Shown: positions 6,141 through 60,676 of the stretch, piece by piece | Numbering within the stretch: position 1 is the stretch's first letter | How the letters are laid out: every line of letters starts with the position of its first letter | IMG/VR virus record: IMGVR_UViG_3300031576_000005 | Location: 95,143 to 159,142 of that record | Reading direction: 5' to 3' (one strand) | Source: a virus | Length of the DNA stretch: 64,000 nt | Translations under genes and position numbers: made by a program | The notes under the pieces: model-generated | The model's input: the letters and a program-made list of their open reading frames with translations, nothing else | What the model was told of the DNA's origin: nothing | Database searches by the model: none

Positions 6141-7048
6141 ATATTTCTTGTAAAATTTTCAGTTTTCCATACTGGGCTTCCAACGAAAGTTTGTCCCTCA
6201 ACCATTCCTGGAACATTTCCATTCACCCCACCTATGCAGAGATGTTGTCCGATTGACGCATCACAAATATCTAGCCACGGAAAATTTTTAGTTAAATCTA
6301 AACTATTTTTCTTTGCCCATTCATACCAATACCATGTTAGGGCGCATGTCATAATAGCGTCGTTAGCCATTTTTTTATTGTTAATTTCATCTTTGGTAAA
6401 TGCAATCTTCATCCATTGCCAATATTCTGACACGACATCTCTTGTTTGGTCGTTTAAATCTTCTAAAATTTTGTTAAATCTATGGTAAGCCAAAAAACAC
6501 GAGCCACAAGAATTGCTTCCACCCTGCACTAATATTTTGCCTCGTTTTGTATCAATTTCAAATGGTTTATACATATATTCTCGGTTAATAATATCTTTAC
6601 GAAATTGTTGTATCATTAATTTTGGAAAGAAATTATCAGTTTTTTCTTTATTATAAAAATCTGGATGGGAGGTGAGTGGAATTGCCACAACATTCGGATT
6701 TGATTCGATAACAGCCATACAATCTTCCATGTATTCCCGTCTGAAAACGTAATCAGATTCTACCATGAATATAAATTCTGGATTCAAAACCCTCATTAAA
6801 TTATACGCAGACTCAAATTGGCGACCAATACCTAAATTACAACCATTTAATATCAAATGAATAGGCATCTCTATTGAGCTATTTTCTTTTGCAAATTTAA
6901 ACAAAGAAGATTGAATATTTAAATCCGAACAATCATCTAATATATATATTTCGTTTGGAAAAATTTTAGTATTAGATAAAGTTGTCCTTAGACAATCTGC
7001 AAGTACTTTTGGACGGTTATAAGTAAAATATATATATAATAATTTCAT
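6137..7048 (-). CDS. GT-A fold (GT2-like) glycosyltransferase
   Basis: FTYNRP..L..CL, ILDDCS, NLGIG, MVESDY (DxD-like); paralog of 7045-7917. Confidence 0.8.
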   Translation of the reverse strand: MKLLYIYFTYNRPKVLADCLRTTLSNTKIFPNEIYILDDCSDLNIQSSLFKFAKENSSIEMPIHLILNGCNLGIGRQFESAYNLMRVLNPEFIFMVESDYVFRREYMEDCMAVIESNPNVVAIPLTSHPDFYNKEKTDNFFPKLMIQQFRKDIINREYMYKPFEIDTKRGKILVQGGSNSCGSCFLAYHRFNKILEDLNDQTRDVVSEYWQWMKIAFTKDEINNKKMANDAIMTCALTWYWYEWAKKNSLDLTKNFPWLDICDASIGQHLCIGGVNGNVPGMVEGQTFVGSPVWKTENFTRNI

Positions 7049-7917
7049 TGTGAGAACGAAGGCGAGCCAACAAAAGTTTGCCCTTCTTGAATACCAGGAA
7101 TATTACCATTAATTCCTAGGGCATTAATATGGTTAGAAACTGACGGAACAATATTTAGTAAAGGAAAATATTTGCTGGTATCCCATCCTTGCTCCTTTGC
7201 GTAAAGCGACCAATAATAACTTAATCCGTGTGATAATGGACCGTCTGCTAAAAGTTTTCTATTACCCCCTGGTTGTTTATTAGCCAAACGTTCCCACCAC
7301 GTTGTTTTCATTTCTGGATATTTTTTCATTAATTCCATTGTAAAACGCCATTTTAAATAAATTGTTCCACAAGAATTAGAGATTCCACTCAATTTTAGAG
7401 TTTTGTTTCCCAATGTACAATCGAATAGTTTAAACATATTGGTTCTATTGACTGGGTCAGAACCGTAATCTTCTTTTATAATATTTCTATACATTTTATC
7501 ATATCTTTCAGGCGTATAAAAATCTGGGTGGTCATATCCCGATATGCCAATTGATTTTTTCCCGATTTCACTTTCAAATACCTCTAAAATATCTTCTGCC
7601 CAATTTTTTCTAAATATGTAATCACTTTCAACAAAAAAAACATATTCTGGATTATATACTCGTGCTACAGACAATCCAAATTCAAAATTCGTGCCATATC
7701 CTATATTTTCATTAAATGAAAGCATATCAATCGGCATTTCTTTCGTAGAATTTTCCAAACAAAATTGCCATAACCCGACTTTTGTTGATTTTTCACTTGC
7801 ATCATCTAAAATCACAACTCTATGTGGTTTAACGTTTGTATTGGAGAATAATGTGGCCAAACACTCTTTTAGAATTATTGGACGATTATGAGTGTATATA
7901 ATATATAGAAGTTTCAT
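7045..7917 (-). CDS. GT-A fold (GT2-like) glycosyltransferase
   Basis: YTHNRP, ILDDAS, NIGYG, FVESDY; shares C-terminal EGQTFVGSP with 6137-7048. Confidence 0.8.
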   Translation of the reverse strand: MKLLYIIYTHNRPIILKECLATLFSNTNVKPHRVVILDDASEKSTKVGLWQFCLENSTKEMPIDMLSFNENIGYGTNFEFGLSVARVYNPEYVFFVESDYIFRKNWAEDILEVFESEIGKKSIGISGYDHPDFYTPERYDKMYRNIIKEDYGSDPVNRTNMFKLFDCTLGNKTLKLSGISNSCGTIYLKWRFTMELMKKYPEMKTTWWERLANKQPGGNRKLLADGPLSHGLSYYWSLYAKEQGWDTSKYFPLLNIVPSVSNHINALGINGNIPGIQEGQTFVGSPSFSQ

Positions 7918-8114
7918 ATTTTAAATTTTGCTATAAAATCACTACAAATTCCTGAGATTTTAACTTTTGGTAATCCATAAATTTTAAAATGTTCATCTTT
8001 AGCTATAGAGTATTTAGAGCCTACTTCAGAAATAGCTTCGTTTAATGAAAAAAAATGAATTTCTTTAGTGCTTGCTAGAACCCCGTCTAAATCAAAAATT
8101 ATCAATTTAATCAT
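7914..8114 (-). pseudogene. Truncated HAD phosphatase N-terminus fused to an unrelated C-terminal tail (probable deletion scar)
   Basis: IIFDLDGVL HAD motif I but only 66 aa; motifs II-IV absent; ends GICSDFIAKF. Confidence 0.65.
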
Positions 8115-8136: not shown

Positions 8137-9120
8137 TTATTCTCTATAAATATCGTTTAATGCCGAAAGTACGCTTTCCACCATTTTATCTTCAGAAAAT
8201 TGTAAAGCTTCATTATAACAGTTAATCTGCTTTATGTCATCAAGTTTATTCCAGGAATTACAAAAATCCATATCGCTAAAAATAAAGAAGCCATTAACGC
8301 CATCTTTAATAAAATTTTTATATCCACCCATTTTAGTTGCGAAGATTGTACAACCATAACTAGCCGCTTCTTTAGCGGCCAAAGTTACCGAAATATTATA
8401 ATCCTGAAACTGAGTATTTACCTTTGCTCGCTTCATGAAATCTTCTTTTGTTTTCTGGTCGATAACGCCCAAATAATAAGTAATTTTATTATTAATAAAG
8501 TTTAATAGAGGATAATCTTTATCAATTGGTCCCGCAAAAACCGTCGTAATTTCATGTTTTAATGCATAATAAGCAACCTCTATAGAGTGATATGCTCTAC
8601 AATGTCTGGAACATTGAAAAATCATGTCTTCCTTTGGATATTCCTGAAATACTGGAAATTTCGGGCCAATAACAATATTATAAACTTTATGATTGCTAGT
8701 TAGTTGTGGTTCTTGGTTTTTAATATCAAATAATAATACATGTTTGTGATATGGATGAACAATTTCGCGCCAACCAACCGGCCAAACGACTTGTTTTTGG
8801 CTACGGCATCCTTGTAAATTAAGATATGTGGCCGCGAAATGATGAAAGAAAATATCGTATTCGTCGGAGTTTGGAATATAATTTTTAAGGGGTGCTCCGT
8901 TTTTAATAGCCTGCCTTTCACGTTCGCATAAAAAATGGCCTTGTTTTCTTTTTTCTATAGGAATACCATCAAAACATTTTTCATCGCCATAAATATGAAA
9001 ATCATCTAATTGATTTAATAAAGCTGCGGCAATTATTCGGCCTCCCCCATATTTTTTGGGAGCAACATGATAGTCCTCTATACAATCCGATTCATTAACA
9101 TCTATATATGCTATTTTCAT
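8137..9120 (-). CDS. GT-B fold (GT4-like) glycosyltransferase
   Basis: YGGG, FAGPI, YLGVI, EAASYGCTIFAT..GG..FIKDGVNGF. Confidence 0.8.
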   Translation of the reverse strand: MKIAYIDVNESDCIEDYHVAPKKYGGGRIIAAALLNQLDDFHIYGDEKCFDGIPIEKRKQGHFLCERERQAIKNGAPLKNYIPNSDEYDIFFHHFAATYLNLQGCRSQKQVVWPVGWREIVHPYHKHVLLFDIKNQEPQLTSNHKVYNIVIGPKFPVFQEYPKEDMIFQCSRHCRAYHSIEVAYYALKHEITTVFAGPIDKDYPLLNFINNKITYYLGVIDQKTKEDFMKRAKVNTQFQDYNISVTLAAKEAASYGCTIFATKMGGYKNFIKDGVNGFFIFSDMDFCNSWNKLDDIKQINCYNEALQFSEDKMVESVLSALNDIYRE

Positions 9121-9770
9121 TTGGGTTTCGCAATATAATCGGGATGATTTTCTTTAACGAGGCTCATTGTATACCCCATATCTTCAAATAGTTTACAAAA
9201 ATCTTCAACGCTTTTGGGGCTAAAATTTTCGTATTCAAATATAACTATAGGTCGACATCGCATAATTGTTTCTCTCGCCCCCTCTATAACATAGTAATCT
9301 GTTCCTTGGGCGTCTATTTTTATAAGATTTACATCTAAATTTAAACTATCCAAGGCCAACATTTTAATTTGTGTGGGTTGTGTTGACTCCCCACATCTAG
9401 TATCCCCAAGGTTGCTTCCCGTTGGGGTATTAATAGTAGCATATCCATTGTATTTCCAACAGGTATAATTATATGAAGTAACATTATCACATTCGTTTAT
9501 ACAAAAATTACCGCACATTTGATTAAAACGCCTAATTTGTGGTTCAAAAGCATGGATATGTTTTACTTTTTTAGCTAAATGAATTATCTGTTCCCCAATA
9601 TAAGAACCAACATCAATAATTACTGATTGATTATTTATATATTTTTCAATTTCTTGTATAACTTCTTCGTCCCATAATTTGTTCTCAAATTTAACGTAAT
9701 TCTCAATAAGGTCTCCGCCATCAGATAGCAATAATTTGCCATAGGGCTTTTTATAAATTGAATATTCCAT
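9117..9770 (-). CDS. FkbM family methyltransferase
   Basis: IDVGSYIG, HAFEP, IKIDAQG, RPIVIFE. Confidence 0.88.
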   Translation of the reverse strand: MEYSIYKKPYGKLLLSDGGDLIENYVKFENKLWDEEVIQEIEKYINNQSVIIDVGSYIGEQIIHLAKKVKHIHAFEPQIRRFNQMCGNFCINECDNVTSYNYTCWKYNGYATINTPTGSNLGDTRCGESTQPTQIKMLALDSLNLDVNLIKIDAQGTDYYVIEGARETIMRCRPIVIFEYENFSPKSVEDFCKLFEDMGYTMSLVKENHPDYIAKPK

Positions 9771-9771
9771 A

Positions 9772-10404
9772 TTATTTGACTCTTTTAGCTAAGTCTATAA
9801 TAATATCATTTGGATTCATTTCTTTATAATAAAGATTTTCTATATCTTTGATTTTAAATTCATTATAATATTTGGGATTAATAAACCAATCTTCTAAATA
9901 TTTTTTGCCAGCGAATGAAAGTCCAACATTTTCAACAATCATTTTATATGGTTTATCTTTCATAAAAGAACTTAATTTTTCTTTTTGAAATTGTCCATGC
10001 GGGTTATATAAATCGTGCTCTATTGTTAATATTTTAAAATCATATTCTTCAAATGGAAATTTTGATAAAACATTAACGCACGGGTCTTCAATGTATCCGT
10101 TTGGGTCTATATCAATTGTAAGATAATCGATAGCTTTTGGAACTTTAAAATGGTCAAATAATTTTTTGTAATCCAGGTGAAATGCGTCGGCCTGAATAAC
10201 TGTAGATTTTGGCCTGAATTTAGCCGCTTCTTCACAATATCTAGGAAGATATTCTATGAGCAAACCAGTCCAACCGAGTTCCTCTAACCAAGCTGTATTT
10301 GATGCACATGGCTCGCCTTCTCCATTGCCAGCGCCAATATCAACATAATATCCTGAATTTCCCAATAGTAATTGAACAAACAAATCTTGTTGTGATAAAC
10401 TCAT
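9772..10404 (-). CDS. FkbM-like methyltransferase
   Basis: QQDLFV, YVDIGAG, SNT..LE..GWTGLLIE, IDYLTIDID, TIEH, EDWF. Confidence 0.82.
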   Translation of the reverse strand: MSLSQQDLFVQLLLGNSGYYVDIGAGNGEGEPCASNTAWLEELGWTGLLIEYLPRYCEEAAKFRPKSTVIQADAFHLDYKKLFDHFKVPKAIDYLTIDIDPNGYIEDPCVNVLSKFPFEEYDFKILTIEHDLYNPHGQFQKEKLSSFMKDKPYKMIVENVGLSFAGKKYLEDWFINPKYYNEFKIKDIENLYYKEMNPNDIIIDLAKRVK

Positions 10405-10424
10405 ATAGTTATATATTTAATTTT

Positions 10425-12021
10425 TTATTTTTCGTAAATTTTTCCATTTATTACCATAATATCAACCGGCGTATTTTTAAAGAAATTATTTGCGTCTTCT
10501 TGAGTTTCTAGTATTGGCTCACCATTTCCATTTAAACTCGTGTTTATTATCATAGGTATATTGGTTTGGCTATAAAAAGATTCAATAAGTTTATAATAAT
10601 TAGGATTTGTTTCCTTGGTAACAGTCTGCATTCTAGCAGAACCATCAATATGTGTGATTGAGGGAATTTCTTTTGGATTTTTCACTTGAGCCGTAAATAA
10701 CATAAAAGGACTTTTTGTAGGAAAATCAAACCATTCTTGGGTTTTTTCTTCTAAAACTGATGGTGCAAACGGCCTGAACCATTCCCTCTTTTTAATTAAA
10801 AAATTTAATAACTCTCTATTATGGAAATTACGTGGGTCTGCTAAAATAGAGCGATGTCCAAGCGCTCTTGGTCCGTGTTCCGATTTTCCATCAAACCATC
10901 CAATAATTTTTCCTTTCGATATTTGTTTTGCTAAAAAATCATATTCAAGCTCTCTCTCTCTCTTCGCCTCCACCCAGATAGCAAATCTCATTATCTGTAT
11001 ATTTGTAACGTGGTTCATTAAACAAATTATGAGTAACGTAAAGTGCCGAACCAACCGCTATTCCATCATCACCACAACCAGGAAATAAGTGAACATTTTT
11101 AAATTTAGATTCTTTCAAAATTCTGGTATTAACATTGCAATTGAGCATTGAACCACCACTTAAACATATATTTTTATTTCCTTGATTATCAATATTTTGT
11201 ATACATTTTAAAATCGCTTCCTCGAATATATATTGAAGAGATGCGGCGATATTCATCGCTGTTTTACTATCTTTAAAAGAAGAATCAAAAGCTTTATCTG
11301 TCCTAGAAATTTCTTTCCAAAATTTACAAAATTCCTCCTCAAATACTAACTCTTTGTTAAAAAAGCATCTCTCAACATATGAATTAATATTTTTAATTAT
11401 AAAATCTAACGGCATCCCATAAGATGCTAGACCCATCGTTGAACCAGCTTTATGTAAAGGGTCTCCTAGCCCCAAATTATATGTAAATTTTGTATAAAGA
11501 TTCCCAACCATTAAACCCGGGCAATTAATAGCCAGTATCTTATTATTTTCTCCATAGGCAACTAAAGAATTCCACGCCATCATTCCGGTACTAGAATCCA
11601 AACTGAAACAAAAAGAAGATTGAAATGGACTAGTATAAAAAGATGACGCACAATGCGCCATATGGTGTGGAATTGCTATTGCCGGAATTCTTTTGCCTCT
11701 TATTTCAAAAAATATATTATCTTTTATTATTTGATTACCCACCACACCCTGCGTAAATATTCCGCATTCTTGATTATTTATAAAAAGTTTACATGTTCCG
11801 TTCGCATATTCAGGAAAATAATCGGTAAATGAAATAACGTCAACTTCATTTAATGAAATATTAGATAGTTTTAATCCGTAATCTAATACCTCATTTGTTA
11901 TTCCGTAAGATTTTTTAATTCTAGTAACTCTTTCCGATGAAATTGCCGAAATTAATTTGTTACCTTTTACTACAGCCATTCCCCCGTCGTGTCCTAAATG
12001 AAGCCCTAATATATTAGCCAT
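10425..12021 (-). CDS. NodU/CmcH/TobZ-family carbamoyltransferase, frameshifted at an (AG)7 repeat
   Basis: N-half 10945-12021: GHD, SERVTRIK, HHMAH, MGLASYG, GGSMLNC, GDDGIAVG, YLG. C-half in another frame: SEHGPRALGHRSILADPR, KKREWFRPFAPS, HIDGSARMQTV, NTSLN..GEPI. Confidence 0.9.
10950..10963. repeat. (CT)7 on + / (AG)7 on coding strand, at the frameshift junction
   Basis: Coding strand GGC GA[AGAGAGAGAGAGAG]CTTGA; 8 or 5 units would restore the frame. Confidence 0.95.
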
Positions 12022-12024
12022 ATT

Positions 12025-12717
12025 TTATTTTTTTATAGGTTGAAGTAATAAGTCATGTACGTGTTTAGTATCAAAATCTTCTCTACAAACTTTTTCCATA
12101 GTATCTGGATTTAATGGATTATAGCCTATAAAATCAATTGCGTCAAACAAATTATCATTTTTACTTTTATGAAACCACCACTCGGTATAGATTAGTGGTT
12201 TATACATGTCAAGAATTGGTTTAATATTTTTTAATACAACCGGCTCCCAACCTTCTATATCCATTTTTATAAATTTAAGATTGTTCAAATCATGTTTTAA
12301 CAAAAATTGAGCGGTATTAATACAAGGTAATTCCACTAACTGGCAATGCCCACGTTCTTCTTCGATTGAAAATCCATCCATAATACCTCCGTTAGACCTC
12401 CCGCCACCAAAAGTTTTATATTCATCCCTATCCGAACAACCAGTATTATAAGCTGTACAATTTTTTATTTGATTTAATTCTAAATTTTTAATCAAAAAAC
12501 TATATACCTCTGGGTTAATTTCGAAACTCATTACCCCCCCCACAGTCGCCCCCGCTAATATTGACATAGCAATACTAGAAGTTCCTAAATTAGCCCCAAT
12601 ATCCAAACATAAACAGCCCTTTTCTATAAAAGGGGGCAACACCTTCATAAACATATCAAATTCGGCGGGTAAACTCACACCTCTTGGAACATCGATTTGT
12701 GGATATTCAAAAATCAT
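12025..12717 (-). CDS. FkbM family methyltransferase
   Basis: LDIGANLG, MSFE, IKMDIEGWE, KPLIYTE. Confidence 0.88.
   Translation of the reverse strand: MIFEYPQIDVPRGVSLPAEFDMFMKVLPPFIEKGCLCLDIGANLGTSSIAMSILAGATVGGVMSFEINPEVYSFLIKNLELNQIKNCTAYNTGCSDRDEYKTFGGGRSNGGIMDGFSIEEERGHCQLVELPCINTAQFLLKHDLNNLKFIKMDIEGWEPVVLKNIKPILDMYKPLIYTEWWFHKSKNDNLFDAIDFIGYNPLNPDTMEKVCREDFDTKHVHDLLLQPIKK
12534..12541. repeat. C8 (+) / G8 (coding strand) homopolymer inside FkbM gene, currently in frame
   Basis: GTG GGG GGG GTA (V-G-G-V); longest G/C run I noticed in the window. Confidence 0.85.
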
Positions 12718-13955
12718 ACTATTTCTATTTTTGGTAAAGGGAAAATAAATTTTCCACCATTTTTTCTAAATTCAGTTTCTCTTTCCAGAATTTCTGCCTT
12801 AAAATGATAGGGGCCAATAAAATAATAATCTGGTTTCATGTTGCGGCTTTCTTCCTCAGAAATCAACTTAATTCCACTAATTGTAGTAGCTCCAACTTTT
12901 TCTGGGCTGCGTTCTGCTGCGTATTGAATTAAATCTGTTCCAATTTCGCAATATCCAAGAATAGTGTTTAATTTTGTAGACGAACCATAAATATGAATGG
13001 TTTTACCTTCTAACCTAATCTGTTTTAGCAATTTATTCAATTCGGTTTTATGGGCGAGAACTCGACTCCTAAAAATCTCATATGTTGATTCATCATCAAG
13101 AGCGGCATTGAATTCTCCTAAGCGAATTTCCGATAGTCTTTTTCTAGAATTTTCACTATCATAATTGTGACAGTCATCATGTGTTATATAGCACATAATA
13201 CTACCACCATTAGTATCGGTTAATTCTGCGTCAAAAACTTTTAATCCACAGGCTTTCATCATAATTTCAATTGGAGCTAAGTGATAATGAATTATATGCT
13301 CGTTTACGCAAGAATCATAAGATAGATTTTTTAGCATAGAAGGCCAATATGCAACTTCAAAAATCCAAATACCTTTTTTATGTAAAATTTTTTTAATTTC
13401 TTGTGCAAATTCACAAGGATTTTCAACATCATAATAACACGCAATTGAAGTAATAATATTAATGTCTTTTTCTTCGAGGAGTTTGGTCGGGAATAAATCA
13501 TTTATAATTTTAATATCTTTATCTTTCTGACGGGAAGTAATATCACATGGGTCAATCCCAATTTTTTTAAAATTTTCACTATAATTTCTCAAAAGCGTTC
13601 CGTCGTTCATAGCAATATCTAGTACTGTTCCATCATATAAATTGGTAATCCCAGTGGTTTTCCAAACAATTCTTTGCAAATGTTCTCTCATCGTGTTACT
13701 AATACCAGACTGATACCAGTAATTTGTATATAAAATCCTTGGTGGAATTGTATGGCGGGTTTGAACCAAACCACAAGCATTCTCCCATTTTGAAGTATCG
13801 CAACGAACTATTTGGTTTGGGGTTTTGCGAGTGGGGGGATTTGGCACTCCTTCTTTAATAAAAGAACCCTGAAAATATTGATACCCCAAATCCAATACAT
13901 CGGTCAAATGAGGATTACCACAAATTCGGCAGGTTTGACGATACTTAATATTCAT
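12714..13955 (-). CDS. NDP-sugar C-methyltransferase (second paralog)
   Basis: CRICG..CGLVQ, YWYQSG, LDIAMNDG, GIDP, NEH, NGGSI, YGSSTK. Confidence 0.9.
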   Translation of the reverse strand: MNIKYRQTCRICGNPHLTDVLDLGYQYFQGSFIKEGVPNPPTRKTPNQIVRCDTSKWENACGLVQTRHTIPPRILYTNYWYQSGISNTMREHLQRIVWKTTGITNLYDGTVLDIAMNDGTLLRNYSENFKKIGIDPCDITSRQKDKDIKIINDLFPTKLLEEKDINIITSIACYYDVENPCEFAQEIKKILHKKGIWIFEVAYWPSMLKNLSYDSCVNEHIIHYHLAPIEIMMKACGLKVFDAELTDTNGGSIMCYITHDDCHNYDSENSRKRLSEIRLGEFNAALDDESTYEIFRSRVLAHKTELNKLLKQIRLEGKTIHIYGSSTKLNTILGYCEIGTDLIQYAAERSPEKVGATTISGIKLISEEESRNMKPDYYFIGPYHFKAEILERETEFRKNGGKFIFPLPKIEIV

Positions 13956-14271: not shown

Positions 14272-14598
14272 TTATTCTACCACAACTTTAGCCGCATATT
14301 CTTGTTCAAACATTTCAAGCCAAAGTTCTGGTTTTAATCCTTTTTGAGAACCATGAACCCAATAGGGAGAAATAACTCTAACGCTAAAGTCTAAATCAAT
14401 CACCCCTTCGTATTTTACCATTTTATCCTTGCTCCAAGCTGTCAATTTATCTCCACTTTTTAAGACATATAAACCCTCATAACCATGCTGCTTTGGGCAG
14501 GTCTTTGATTTTGTTTCATATATACACCAAATAATACCTTCGGTACCAGTTTCAAAAAATGCTTCTAAAAATCCCTTAATATTTTTTTGTTTTTTCAT
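14272..14598 (-). CDS. Hypothetical phage protein
   Basis: FFETGTEGIIW..WVHG; ATGA overlap. Confidence 0.65.
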   Translation of the reverse strand: MKKQKNIKGFLEAFFETGTEGIIWCIYETKSKTCPKQHGYEGLYVLKSGDKLTAWSKDKMVKYEGVIDLDFSVRVISPYWVHGSQKGLKPELWLEMFEQEYAAKVVVE

Positions 14599-22083: not shown

Positions 22084-23166
22084 TTAAATTCCTACCATTT
22101 TTTTTATTTCTTTTTCTAATCTTTCGGCAATATCCTTGTTAGATTTAAGATACTCTATTAGCTTATTATAGCCCTGTGCTATATTTTTATCATCAAGAGC
22201 ATACCAAGCGCCTTTTTTCTGAATTAAACCATAACCATCGGCTAATGTTGCTATTTCTCTTTCGTGGTCAATACCATGGTCATAAATGAACGGAACGGAC
22301 GCTTTACTATGAACATTTCCCGAATTACTTACTTTTTCAAGCTTCATACTCATTATATGTCCAATTACTTTTGAATGATTGTCGCTTGGATTTTCTCGAA
22401 TATATAAATCTGTCCAAAGTTTTTCTAAACCAAGTCTAAGATTACTATAATGGTCAATGGCGTGTCCTCCAGCTTTTTGTTTTCCAACTCCACTTACATG
22501 GCTCATGCCACCCTGATTAATTTTATCACGTACTTGATGAGTAAAAGCAACAATATGGCCATAGTGATTGGCATATGCTGATGCTTCTTTTAAAAATCTT
22601 GTTAATAATGTTGCAGTAGATGCTGTTTTTTCGGCATCAGAAAATGTTTTATTATCATTAACCTCGCTTTGAATTCCATCAATTGAATCTATAATATGAA
22701 AAAATTTTACCTTGTCTTGTTTTAATGTTTTTAAAATCCCGTTAAATAATTTTTCTCCACTTTTTGGTCTACTCATACGAAAGATTGGAGCTGGAATAAT
22801 TTTACCTTTTTCATCTTGAGTCAAATCCTCTTCGCTTTCTGTAACCATTTTTAAATTTGGAGCCATTTTTTCTAACTTTCGATTAATTCTTCCTTCGGTT
22901 GCATGTAAATAAACCCTAACAAATTTATAATTATAGAATTTTTGAAATTCACCGCCCATTATTAGAAGCAATGTAGTTTTCCCAATTCCATCTGGCCCCC
23001 AAAGTTGAACAACTCCACTACCTATTCCGCCGGTTAAAATATCTAACCCCAACGAACCAGTTGATATAGTTTTATTTTCTATTGGGTCCGTCCCATCAAT
23101 AACATACATTCCCTCACTATCGAATTCTAACTCTTTAATTTCTAGATTTTCTTTTGATTTTGCCAT
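22084..23166 (-). CDS. recA: RecA/UvsX-like recombinase
   Basis: ISTGSLGLDI, GPDGIGKTT Walker A, IIDSI, HQVRDKI, GGHA, IQKKGAWY, IAQG. Confidence 0.93.
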   Translation of the reverse strand: MAKSKENLEIKELEFDSEGMYVIDGTDPIENKTISTGSLGLDILTGGIGSGVVQLWGPDGIGKTTLLLIMGGEFQKFYNYKFVRVYLHATEGRINRKLEKMAPNLKMVTESEEDLTQDEKGKIIPAPIFRMSRPKSGEKLFNGILKTLKQDKVKFFHIIDSIDGIQSEVNDNKTFSDAEKTASTATLLTRFLKEASAYANHYGHIVAFTHQVRDKINQGGMSHVSGVGKQKAGGHAIDHYSNLRLGLEKLWTDLYIRENPSDNHSKVIGHIMSMKLEKVSNSGNVHSKASVPFIYDHGIDHEREIATLADGYGLIQKKGAWYALDDKNIAQGYNKLIEYLKSNKDIAERLEKEIKKMVGI

Positions 23167-60630: not shown

Positions 60631-60676
60631 TGTATATCATTAATTTGCTTATTTTGCAACAGATATTTTAGTGTAA
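60631..60676. promoter_or_regulatory. Divergent promoter region: leftward TTGCAA-17-TATACA and rightward AGTGTAA
   Basis: -35 60654-60659, -10 60631-60636 on minus; AGTGTAA 60670-60676 on plus. Confidence 0.6.

Follow-up and report, generated by a model that had tools for sequence, protein, structure and literature searches.

A gene whose two halves lie in different reading frames on either side of a short tandem repeat may be a decayed gene, an intact gene with an assembly error, a pair of genes, a recoded gene, or a gene that is turned on and off by changes in the length of the repeat. This question is raised by a NodU/TobZ-type carbamoyltransferase gene at positions 10425-12021 (minus strand) of the window, the stretch of DNA analysed here, which corresponds to the last 64 kb of a 159,142-bp viral contig from IMG/VR. 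In this gene, the Kae1-like half and the YrdC-like half are in different frames. The contig is linear, with a CheckV completeness of 92% and a GC content of 32%, and the minus strand carries almost all of the ORFs of at least 100 aa. Its gene content is that of a phage and includes NrdA/B, two RNA ligases, a PhoH-like protein and a RecA/UvsX-like recombinase. Since the recombinase (window 22084-23166, minus strand) showed at most 27% identity to any of 50,697 isolated phage records, the lineage is one without a cultured close relative, and the phage is, judging from its sequence, large, deep-branching and uncultured.

The N-terminal (Kae1/ASKHA-like) half of the gene is a 358-aa ORF (10945-12021, minus strand) that matches Pfam PF02543 (Carbam_trans_N) with an E-value of 8e-47 and is 75% identical to P0002, a homolog in which the two domains are fused. 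Its nearest solved chains are GdmN, NovN and TobZ, and it keeps the invariant residues H118 and H122 (in HHMAH, the HxxxH metal motif) and the GCGDDG motif. The C-terminal (YrdC-like) half (10425-10952, minus strand) is in the +1 frame relative to the N half. Its match to PF16861 (Carbam_trans_C; E-value of 6e-66) covers the whole profile (1-170 of 170 positions) and begins directly after the repeat, and its matches to NovN, GdmN and TobZ are at 1e-34 to 1e-41; the ORF called for this half (P0129, 188 aa) has its ATG 13 codons upstream of the homologous part. At the frame junction is a perfect (AG)7 microsatellite (10950-10963, minus strand; (CT)7 on the plus strand), which the upstream frame reads as E-R-E-R, and the N-half ORF ends with ...YLGGGEERERA followed by a stop, one codon past the tract. 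The original prediction had placed the junction at this tract and had assigned the gene to the NodU/TobZ type; the coordinates were confirmed, with the Pfam N and C halves in frames offset by +1, and the two Pfam matches support the family assignment.

As assembled, the two carbamoyltransferase domains are not on one polypeptide, and (AG)8 would join both. When the tract length was changed in silico, (AG)5, (AG)8 and (AG)11 gave continuous ORFs of 530, 532 and 534 aa, respectively, in agreement with the ORF of about 530 aa that had been expected at (AG)8 or (AG)5, whereas the remaining lengths between 3 and 10 units all resulted in truncation at 356-364 aa. With (AG)8, nine residues separate YLG from [DE]Y, exactly the spacing seen in P0002 (75% identity, 531 aa) and P0003 (64% identity, 529 aa), two relatives with fused domains. 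Similar to TobZ, NovN, GdmN and NodU (PDB 3VEN, 9S2T and 7VZQ), the phage gene encodes Kae1-like and YrdC-like domains, and the HxxxH, GPRALGxRS and NTS(L/F)N motifs are present, although the identity to these proteins is only about 25-45% and the phage gene, as assembled, is in two frames.

The remainder of the gene showed no sign of damage. A tblastn search with P0002, the 75% relative, gave one HSP for each half with no additional frame change or stop, and all of the 94 columns that are highly conserved (at least 95% in 88 full-length homologs) were retained (N half, 46/46; C half, 48/48). The claim that neither half has another lesion was thus borne out. The dN/dS ratio (NG86 method), calculated for each half against the related loci L002 and L003, was 0.08-0.18 in both halves, which was above neither that of the intact pair L002-L003 (0.19-0.20) nor that of the neighbouring genes (0.10-0.29). 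In addition, the lineage of the window had no excess of dN when L003 was used as the reference. Because dS was saturated (1.3 or more), this test is blind to a recent loss of function and shows long-term constraint. As evidence that would speak against it, the original prediction had named homologs without the repeat together with relaxed selection in both halves; the repeat was indeed absent from the homologs (see below), whereas dN/dS was low in both halves, at a saturated dS. We conclude, from the sequence, that the gene is a genuine two-domain O-carbamoyltransferase gene that is otherwise intact, with a product predicted to move a carbamoyl group, using carbamoyl phosphate and ATP, onto a hydroxyl of a sugar or natural product.

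The surroundings of the carbamoyltransferase gene are those of a phage glycan-tailoring cluster. The sugar-tailoring genes in this area encode an NDP-sugar C-methyltransferase, FkbM methyltransferases, GT2 and GT1-like glycosyltransferases and an SDR epimerase. Part of the cluster is a syntenic block (8137-13955, minus strand) with the order NDP-sugar C-methyltransferase, FkbM, carbamoyltransferase, 210-aa protein, FkbM and GT1-like protein, and this order matches that of the closest relative, L002. A 66-aa ORF near the block (window 7914-8114, minus strand) matches just positions 1-47 of the 178-position HAD_2 profile; since there is no space for the remaining part of HAD_2 before the next gene, this ORF is probably the remnant of a truncated phosphatase gene in the glycan island.

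To see how a change in repeat length would affect the protein, the site of the tract was compared with structures and homologs. In the AF2 model of P0002 (pLDDT 88, pTM 0.90), the tract site is an 11-residue coil (residues 349-359) that joins the last Kae1-like element to the first YrdC-like helix, and the pLDDT of this coil (77-82) is below that of the flanks. The columns at the tract site vary in both sequence and length among the 88 homologs, and the solved relatives (GdmN, NovN and TobZ) align to the N half until approximately residue 367 and to the C half from approximately residues 397-418. The AF2 coil and the length-variable columns agree with the position in a variable inter-domain linker that had been proposed for the tract. 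Direct reading of AG repeats gives Glu and Arg in all three frames without a stop codon, so that the gain or loss of a unit should be tolerated in the linker. The number of such tracts expected by chance was obtained from analytic word counts using Markov models (orders 1-5) fitted to the 159-kb genome; 0.0006-0.004 words of the (AG)7 type and about 1e-5 (AG)9 words are expected per genome. Moreover, GAG, which recurs in the (AG)7 tract, is the minor Glu codon (20%). These expectations, together with the use of a minor codon, indicate that neither composition nor codon use accounts for the repeats.

A census of simple sequence repeats in the whole genome identified only two dinucleotide repeats of at least six units, both of which are AG on the coding strand. 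The one other than the carbamoyltransferase tract is (AG)9 at genome positions 14372-14389 (L004 6373-6390), about 92 kb from the carbamoyltransferase tract and about 81 kb before the window, and it splits a gene for an FkbM-family methyltransferase (PF05050). This tract is also at a +1 frame junction; an ORF of 122 aa (L004 6029-6397) ends two codons past the tract, and the frame after the tract goes on with ...VDRLYIDAEGLD... as a second FkbM piece of about 89 aa. Homologs of the 122-aa piece are FkbM methyltransferases of 189-195 aa, which are continuous across the break and align to both pieces, and relative to these homologs the Glu/Arg run at the tract is a loop insertion. In silico, (AG)10 gave an FkbM protein of 211 aa and (AG)7 one of 209 aa; (AG)9 is one unit short.

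A mononucleotide repeat is in the FkbM-family methyltransferase gene directly upstream of the carbamoyltransferase gene (12025-12717, minus strand; PF05050, E-value of 7e-9), which is in frame and syntenic with L002 and L003. Its G8 tract (12534-12541, minus strand; C8 on the plus strand) reads GTG GGG GGG GTA without disturbing the frame; L002 and L003 have one codon fewer at this place, and GGG, a rare codon that makes up only 14% of the Gly codons, occurs twice in the tract. This tract is a possible third switch, which would currently be ON. The three repeats, (AG)7 in the carbamoyltransferase gene, G8 in its FkbM neighbour and (AG)9 in the distant FkbM gene, thus fall into one functional class. 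The sole other G/C run of seven or more bases in the genome, a G7 at genome positions 60665-60671 (plus strand), is in frame about 24 codons into a Ser/Thr-rich ORF (...SLGGTGGNPSF...).

We also inspected the sequences upstream of the two split genes. The late-promoter-like motif AGTGTAA was not enriched in the window (10 observed against 7 expected) and was absent ahead of the carbamoyltransferase gene; a copy was found 8 nt upstream of the start codon of the (AG)9 FkbM gene. The leaders of both genes (window 12022-12045 and L004 6000-6031) are A/T-rich and without a Shine-Dalgarno-like purine run. These two start codons hint that translation initiation in the host may do without a strong Shine-Dalgarno sequence.

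Carbamoyltransferase genes occur in many viral contigs (more than 600 matches in IMG/VR), and such genes have already been listed in T4-like cyanophages (PMC3037559). No relative above 75% identity was present in any of the collections searched. A search of 5.8 billion protein clusters at 90% identity or more returned the window's own products alone, and the genotype thus occurs once; no close relatives were detected when isolated phages were searched by blastn or when IMG/VR and the JGI metagenome contigs were scanned from protein seeds; and patterns made of the two flanks separated by a gap of variable length, applied for both AG tracts to IMG/VR and the JGI metagenome contigs, gave no match. 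Among the more distant homologs, the site was free of both repeat and break in L002, L003, P0004-P0008 and 80 carbamoyltransferase loci from IMG/VR, and the 11-14 kb examined of L002 and L003 contained no dinucleotide repeat of at least five units. The absence of the repeat from all relatives suggests that the AG tracts are young and lineage-specific, which would fit a recently evolved switch and, equally, an accidental repeat expansion.

Short homologs with the N domain only (P0018, P0032 and P0062) were rejected as cases of breaks at a simple sequence repeat, two of them having an in-frame TAA and one being on a contig with several frameshifts. Two carbamoyltransferase homologs from different JGI samples (L006:2720-2740 and L007:1815-1830) have an in-frame TAA at the same column, which is a conserved Tyr in other homologs, nine residues before YLG, and the homologous frame resumes after the stop. 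Possible explanations for this TAA are a nonsense mutation common to the two, a gene that is naturally split, or a stop that is recoded.

The frame breaks might not exist in the phage itself. If the true genome has (AG)8 and (AG)10 and the consensus has lost one unit from each tract, both genes would be ordinary and intact. Both tracts are exactly one unit below a frame-restoring length, the frame-restoring (AG)8 also equals the linker length of the homologs, and no second, independent copy of the genome backs up the one metagenomic assembly. However, the indel quality of the assembly is good: none of the 35 long homopolymers (A/T runs of at least 8 and G/C runs of at least 7) breaks a gene, although such runs usually attract more errors than 14 bases of a dinucleotide repeat, and 90% of the genome is within ORFs of at least 80 codons. 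Homopolymers near the ends of ORFs are at ordinary gene boundaries, as in the case of A8 at genome position 78188, which was considered as a gene break and rejected, and the other overlapping same-strand ORF pairs were rejected as extra frameshifts, as they encode unrelated proteins. Repeat-linked frame breaks are therefore found at the two AG tracts only, which makes a generally indel-prone assembly unlikely, and it would be unusual for errors to remove one unit from each of two separate tracts while sparing the rest of the genome; we regard an error in both tract lengths as unlikely. Alternatively, the breaks may be real and meaningless, if repeats that had expanded by chance slipped once and left both genes as dispensable pseudogenes with no adaptive switching. 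The restriction of the tracts to this lineage, with none in relatives, is what would be seen in this case, the truncated HAD remnant shows that decay happens in this island, and the selection test is powerless for recent events. Against such decay, no second lesion has appeared across 532 and 211 codons, both long dinucleotide repeats in 159 kb are in tailoring enzymes, at length-tolerant coils and against the codon bias, and any tract of this kind stays mechanically reversible. Plain decay therefore seems improbable to us.

The (AG)7 genome might also produce a working enzyme without any change in its sequence. Natural two-gene carbamoyltransferases make an enzyme of two chains conceivable, in which the C domain would be translated apart, for example from the ATG of the 188-aa ORF, and would associate with the N domain. 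In L025, the N- and C-domain genes are split at the same linker (6850-6900), where a GGAG-type site is present and an ATG overlaps the stop codon; in L088 (2501-4171) and L089 (1091-2761), the two genes have changed places, a C-domain gene of 209 aa preceding an N-domain gene of 322 aa, and this arrangement is found in several samples; and stand-alone C domains are present on long contigs. In the present gene, however, the only in-frame ATG is 63 nt inside the N-half ORF, with no recognisable ribosome-binding signal, and starting from it would add 13 out-of-frame residues. The nearest relatives are all fused, and the break in the FkbM gene falls inside a single domain, which could not be rescued by separate chains. 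A two-chain enzyme is, in our judgement, very unlikely. Recoding would be another route to a full-length product, as a -2 slip of the ribosome or a stutter of the RNA polymerase on the AG run would give both truncated and full-length proteins from the (AG)7 genome. By codon-anticodon reasoning, a -2 slip on AGA-GAG would re-pair the P-site and A-site tRNAs perfectly and give the (AG)8 product, and both AG loci require precisely this shift. Yet the site is conserved in none of the relatives, which are fused and repeat-free, and the predicted downstream RNA structure is not stable at the carbamoyltransferase tract (z of +0.3) and weak at the FkbM tract (z of -1.7). We know of no precedent for recoding on a dinucleotide run in phages. 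Such recoding appears highly improbable, and it is no less improbable that (AG)7 and (AG)9 are the normal genomic state, each giving a set ratio of truncated to full-length product in this way; if it did occur, it would be a new class of slippery site, common to two unrelated tailoring genes of one phage.

The reading that we prefer, and to which we give about an even chance of being correct, is a repeat-gated ON/OFF contingency locus that operates by slipped-strand mispairing and is presently OFF. With the (AG)7 allele, the main frame would yield the 358-aa N domain only, so that carbamoylation would be off; in TobZ, it is the YrdC-like domain that makes carbamoyl-adenylate. Slipped-strand mispairing during replication of the phage DNA would produce (AG)8 and with it the full 532-aa enzyme, and (AG)5 or (AG)11 would likewise restore the frame. 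The FkbM gene with (AG)9 in a loop would be in an equivalent state, one unit short of its ON length. The idea of a contingency locus is strengthened because (AG)9 breaks this gene one unit out of frame and because a G8 tract is in the adjacent FkbM gene. Taken together, (AG)7, (AG)9 and the in-frame G8 suggest that a few glycan-tailoring genes of this phage are gated by repeats, with two of the loci OFF and one ON in the consensus that was sequenced. We infer that the tract lengths vary in the phage population, that switching is rapid and reversible, and that it has an adaptive value in bet-hedging. The length of seven units, which is short for a dinucleotide switch, counts against this reading, and the OFF state of both AG loci, with the same shift needed in each, is also what recoding, or a consistent loss of one unit during sequencing or assembly, would produce.

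Helicobacter pylori uses CT/AG dinucleotide repeats for the phase variation of surface-glycan genes. Phase variation of this kind is also found in Campylobacter, where polyG tracts are in capsule and LOS genes (PMC8437040, PMC6321876). The present loci resemble these bacterial systems in that an intragenic repeat toggles the frame of glycan-modifying enzymes and several loci lead to combinatorial glycoforms; the bacterial repeats differ in being in cellular genomes, in having a documented length polymorphism, and in being usually near the 5' end of the gene and not in an inter-domain linker. Among phages, the A-runs in agt (DNA glucosyltransferase) of T2 and in rIIA of T4 behave as contingency loci (Gomez, Barrick and Waters 2025, bioRxiv 10.1101/2025.10.21.683753). 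The likeness to our case is considerable, as these are also large virulent phages with a simple repeat in a sugar-transfer or decoration gene, in which frameshifts by slippage are reversible and bet-hedging has been proposed. However, the T-even repeats are homopolymers (A runs of at least 6), the survey in that preprint covering homopolymers only, they gate DNA glucosylation, and their reversion, about 1000-fold faster than that of a point mutant, has been shown experimentally, whereas the phage described here has dinucleotide runs, as candidate switches, in the linkers or loops of predicted glycan-tailoring genes. In Fletchervirus, a group of Campylobacter phages, genes for receptor-binding proteins carry polyG tracts (Sorensen et al. 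2021, Cell Rep 35:109214, as cited in bioRxiv 10.1101/2025.10.21.683753). According to that citation, hypermutable repeats in phage genes create subpopulations there also, although the tracts it describes are homopolymers of 7-11 G in genes for receptor-binding proteins and not in genes that tailor glycans. The contingency loci demonstrated in phages to date are thus all homopolymers, found in DNA-glucosylation and rII genes of coliphages and in the receptor-binding protein genes of Campylobacter phages.

The novelty of the present case is modest, namely the dinucleotide tracts in linkers or loops, and the occurrence of two or three tracts in the glycan-tailoring genes of one environmental phage. 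The two AG tracts provide two precise sites for a direct, read-level test of bet-hedging in a phage, and they are a warning for annotation that split genes of this kind should be neither dropped as pseudogenes nor silently repaired. If the tracts vary, the progeny of the phage could differ in how carbamoyl and methyl groups are combined on a glycan of the phage's own making. If the proposed switch is true, the contingency loci of phages would extend to dinucleotide repeats, to environmental phages and to the multi-step tailoring of glycans.
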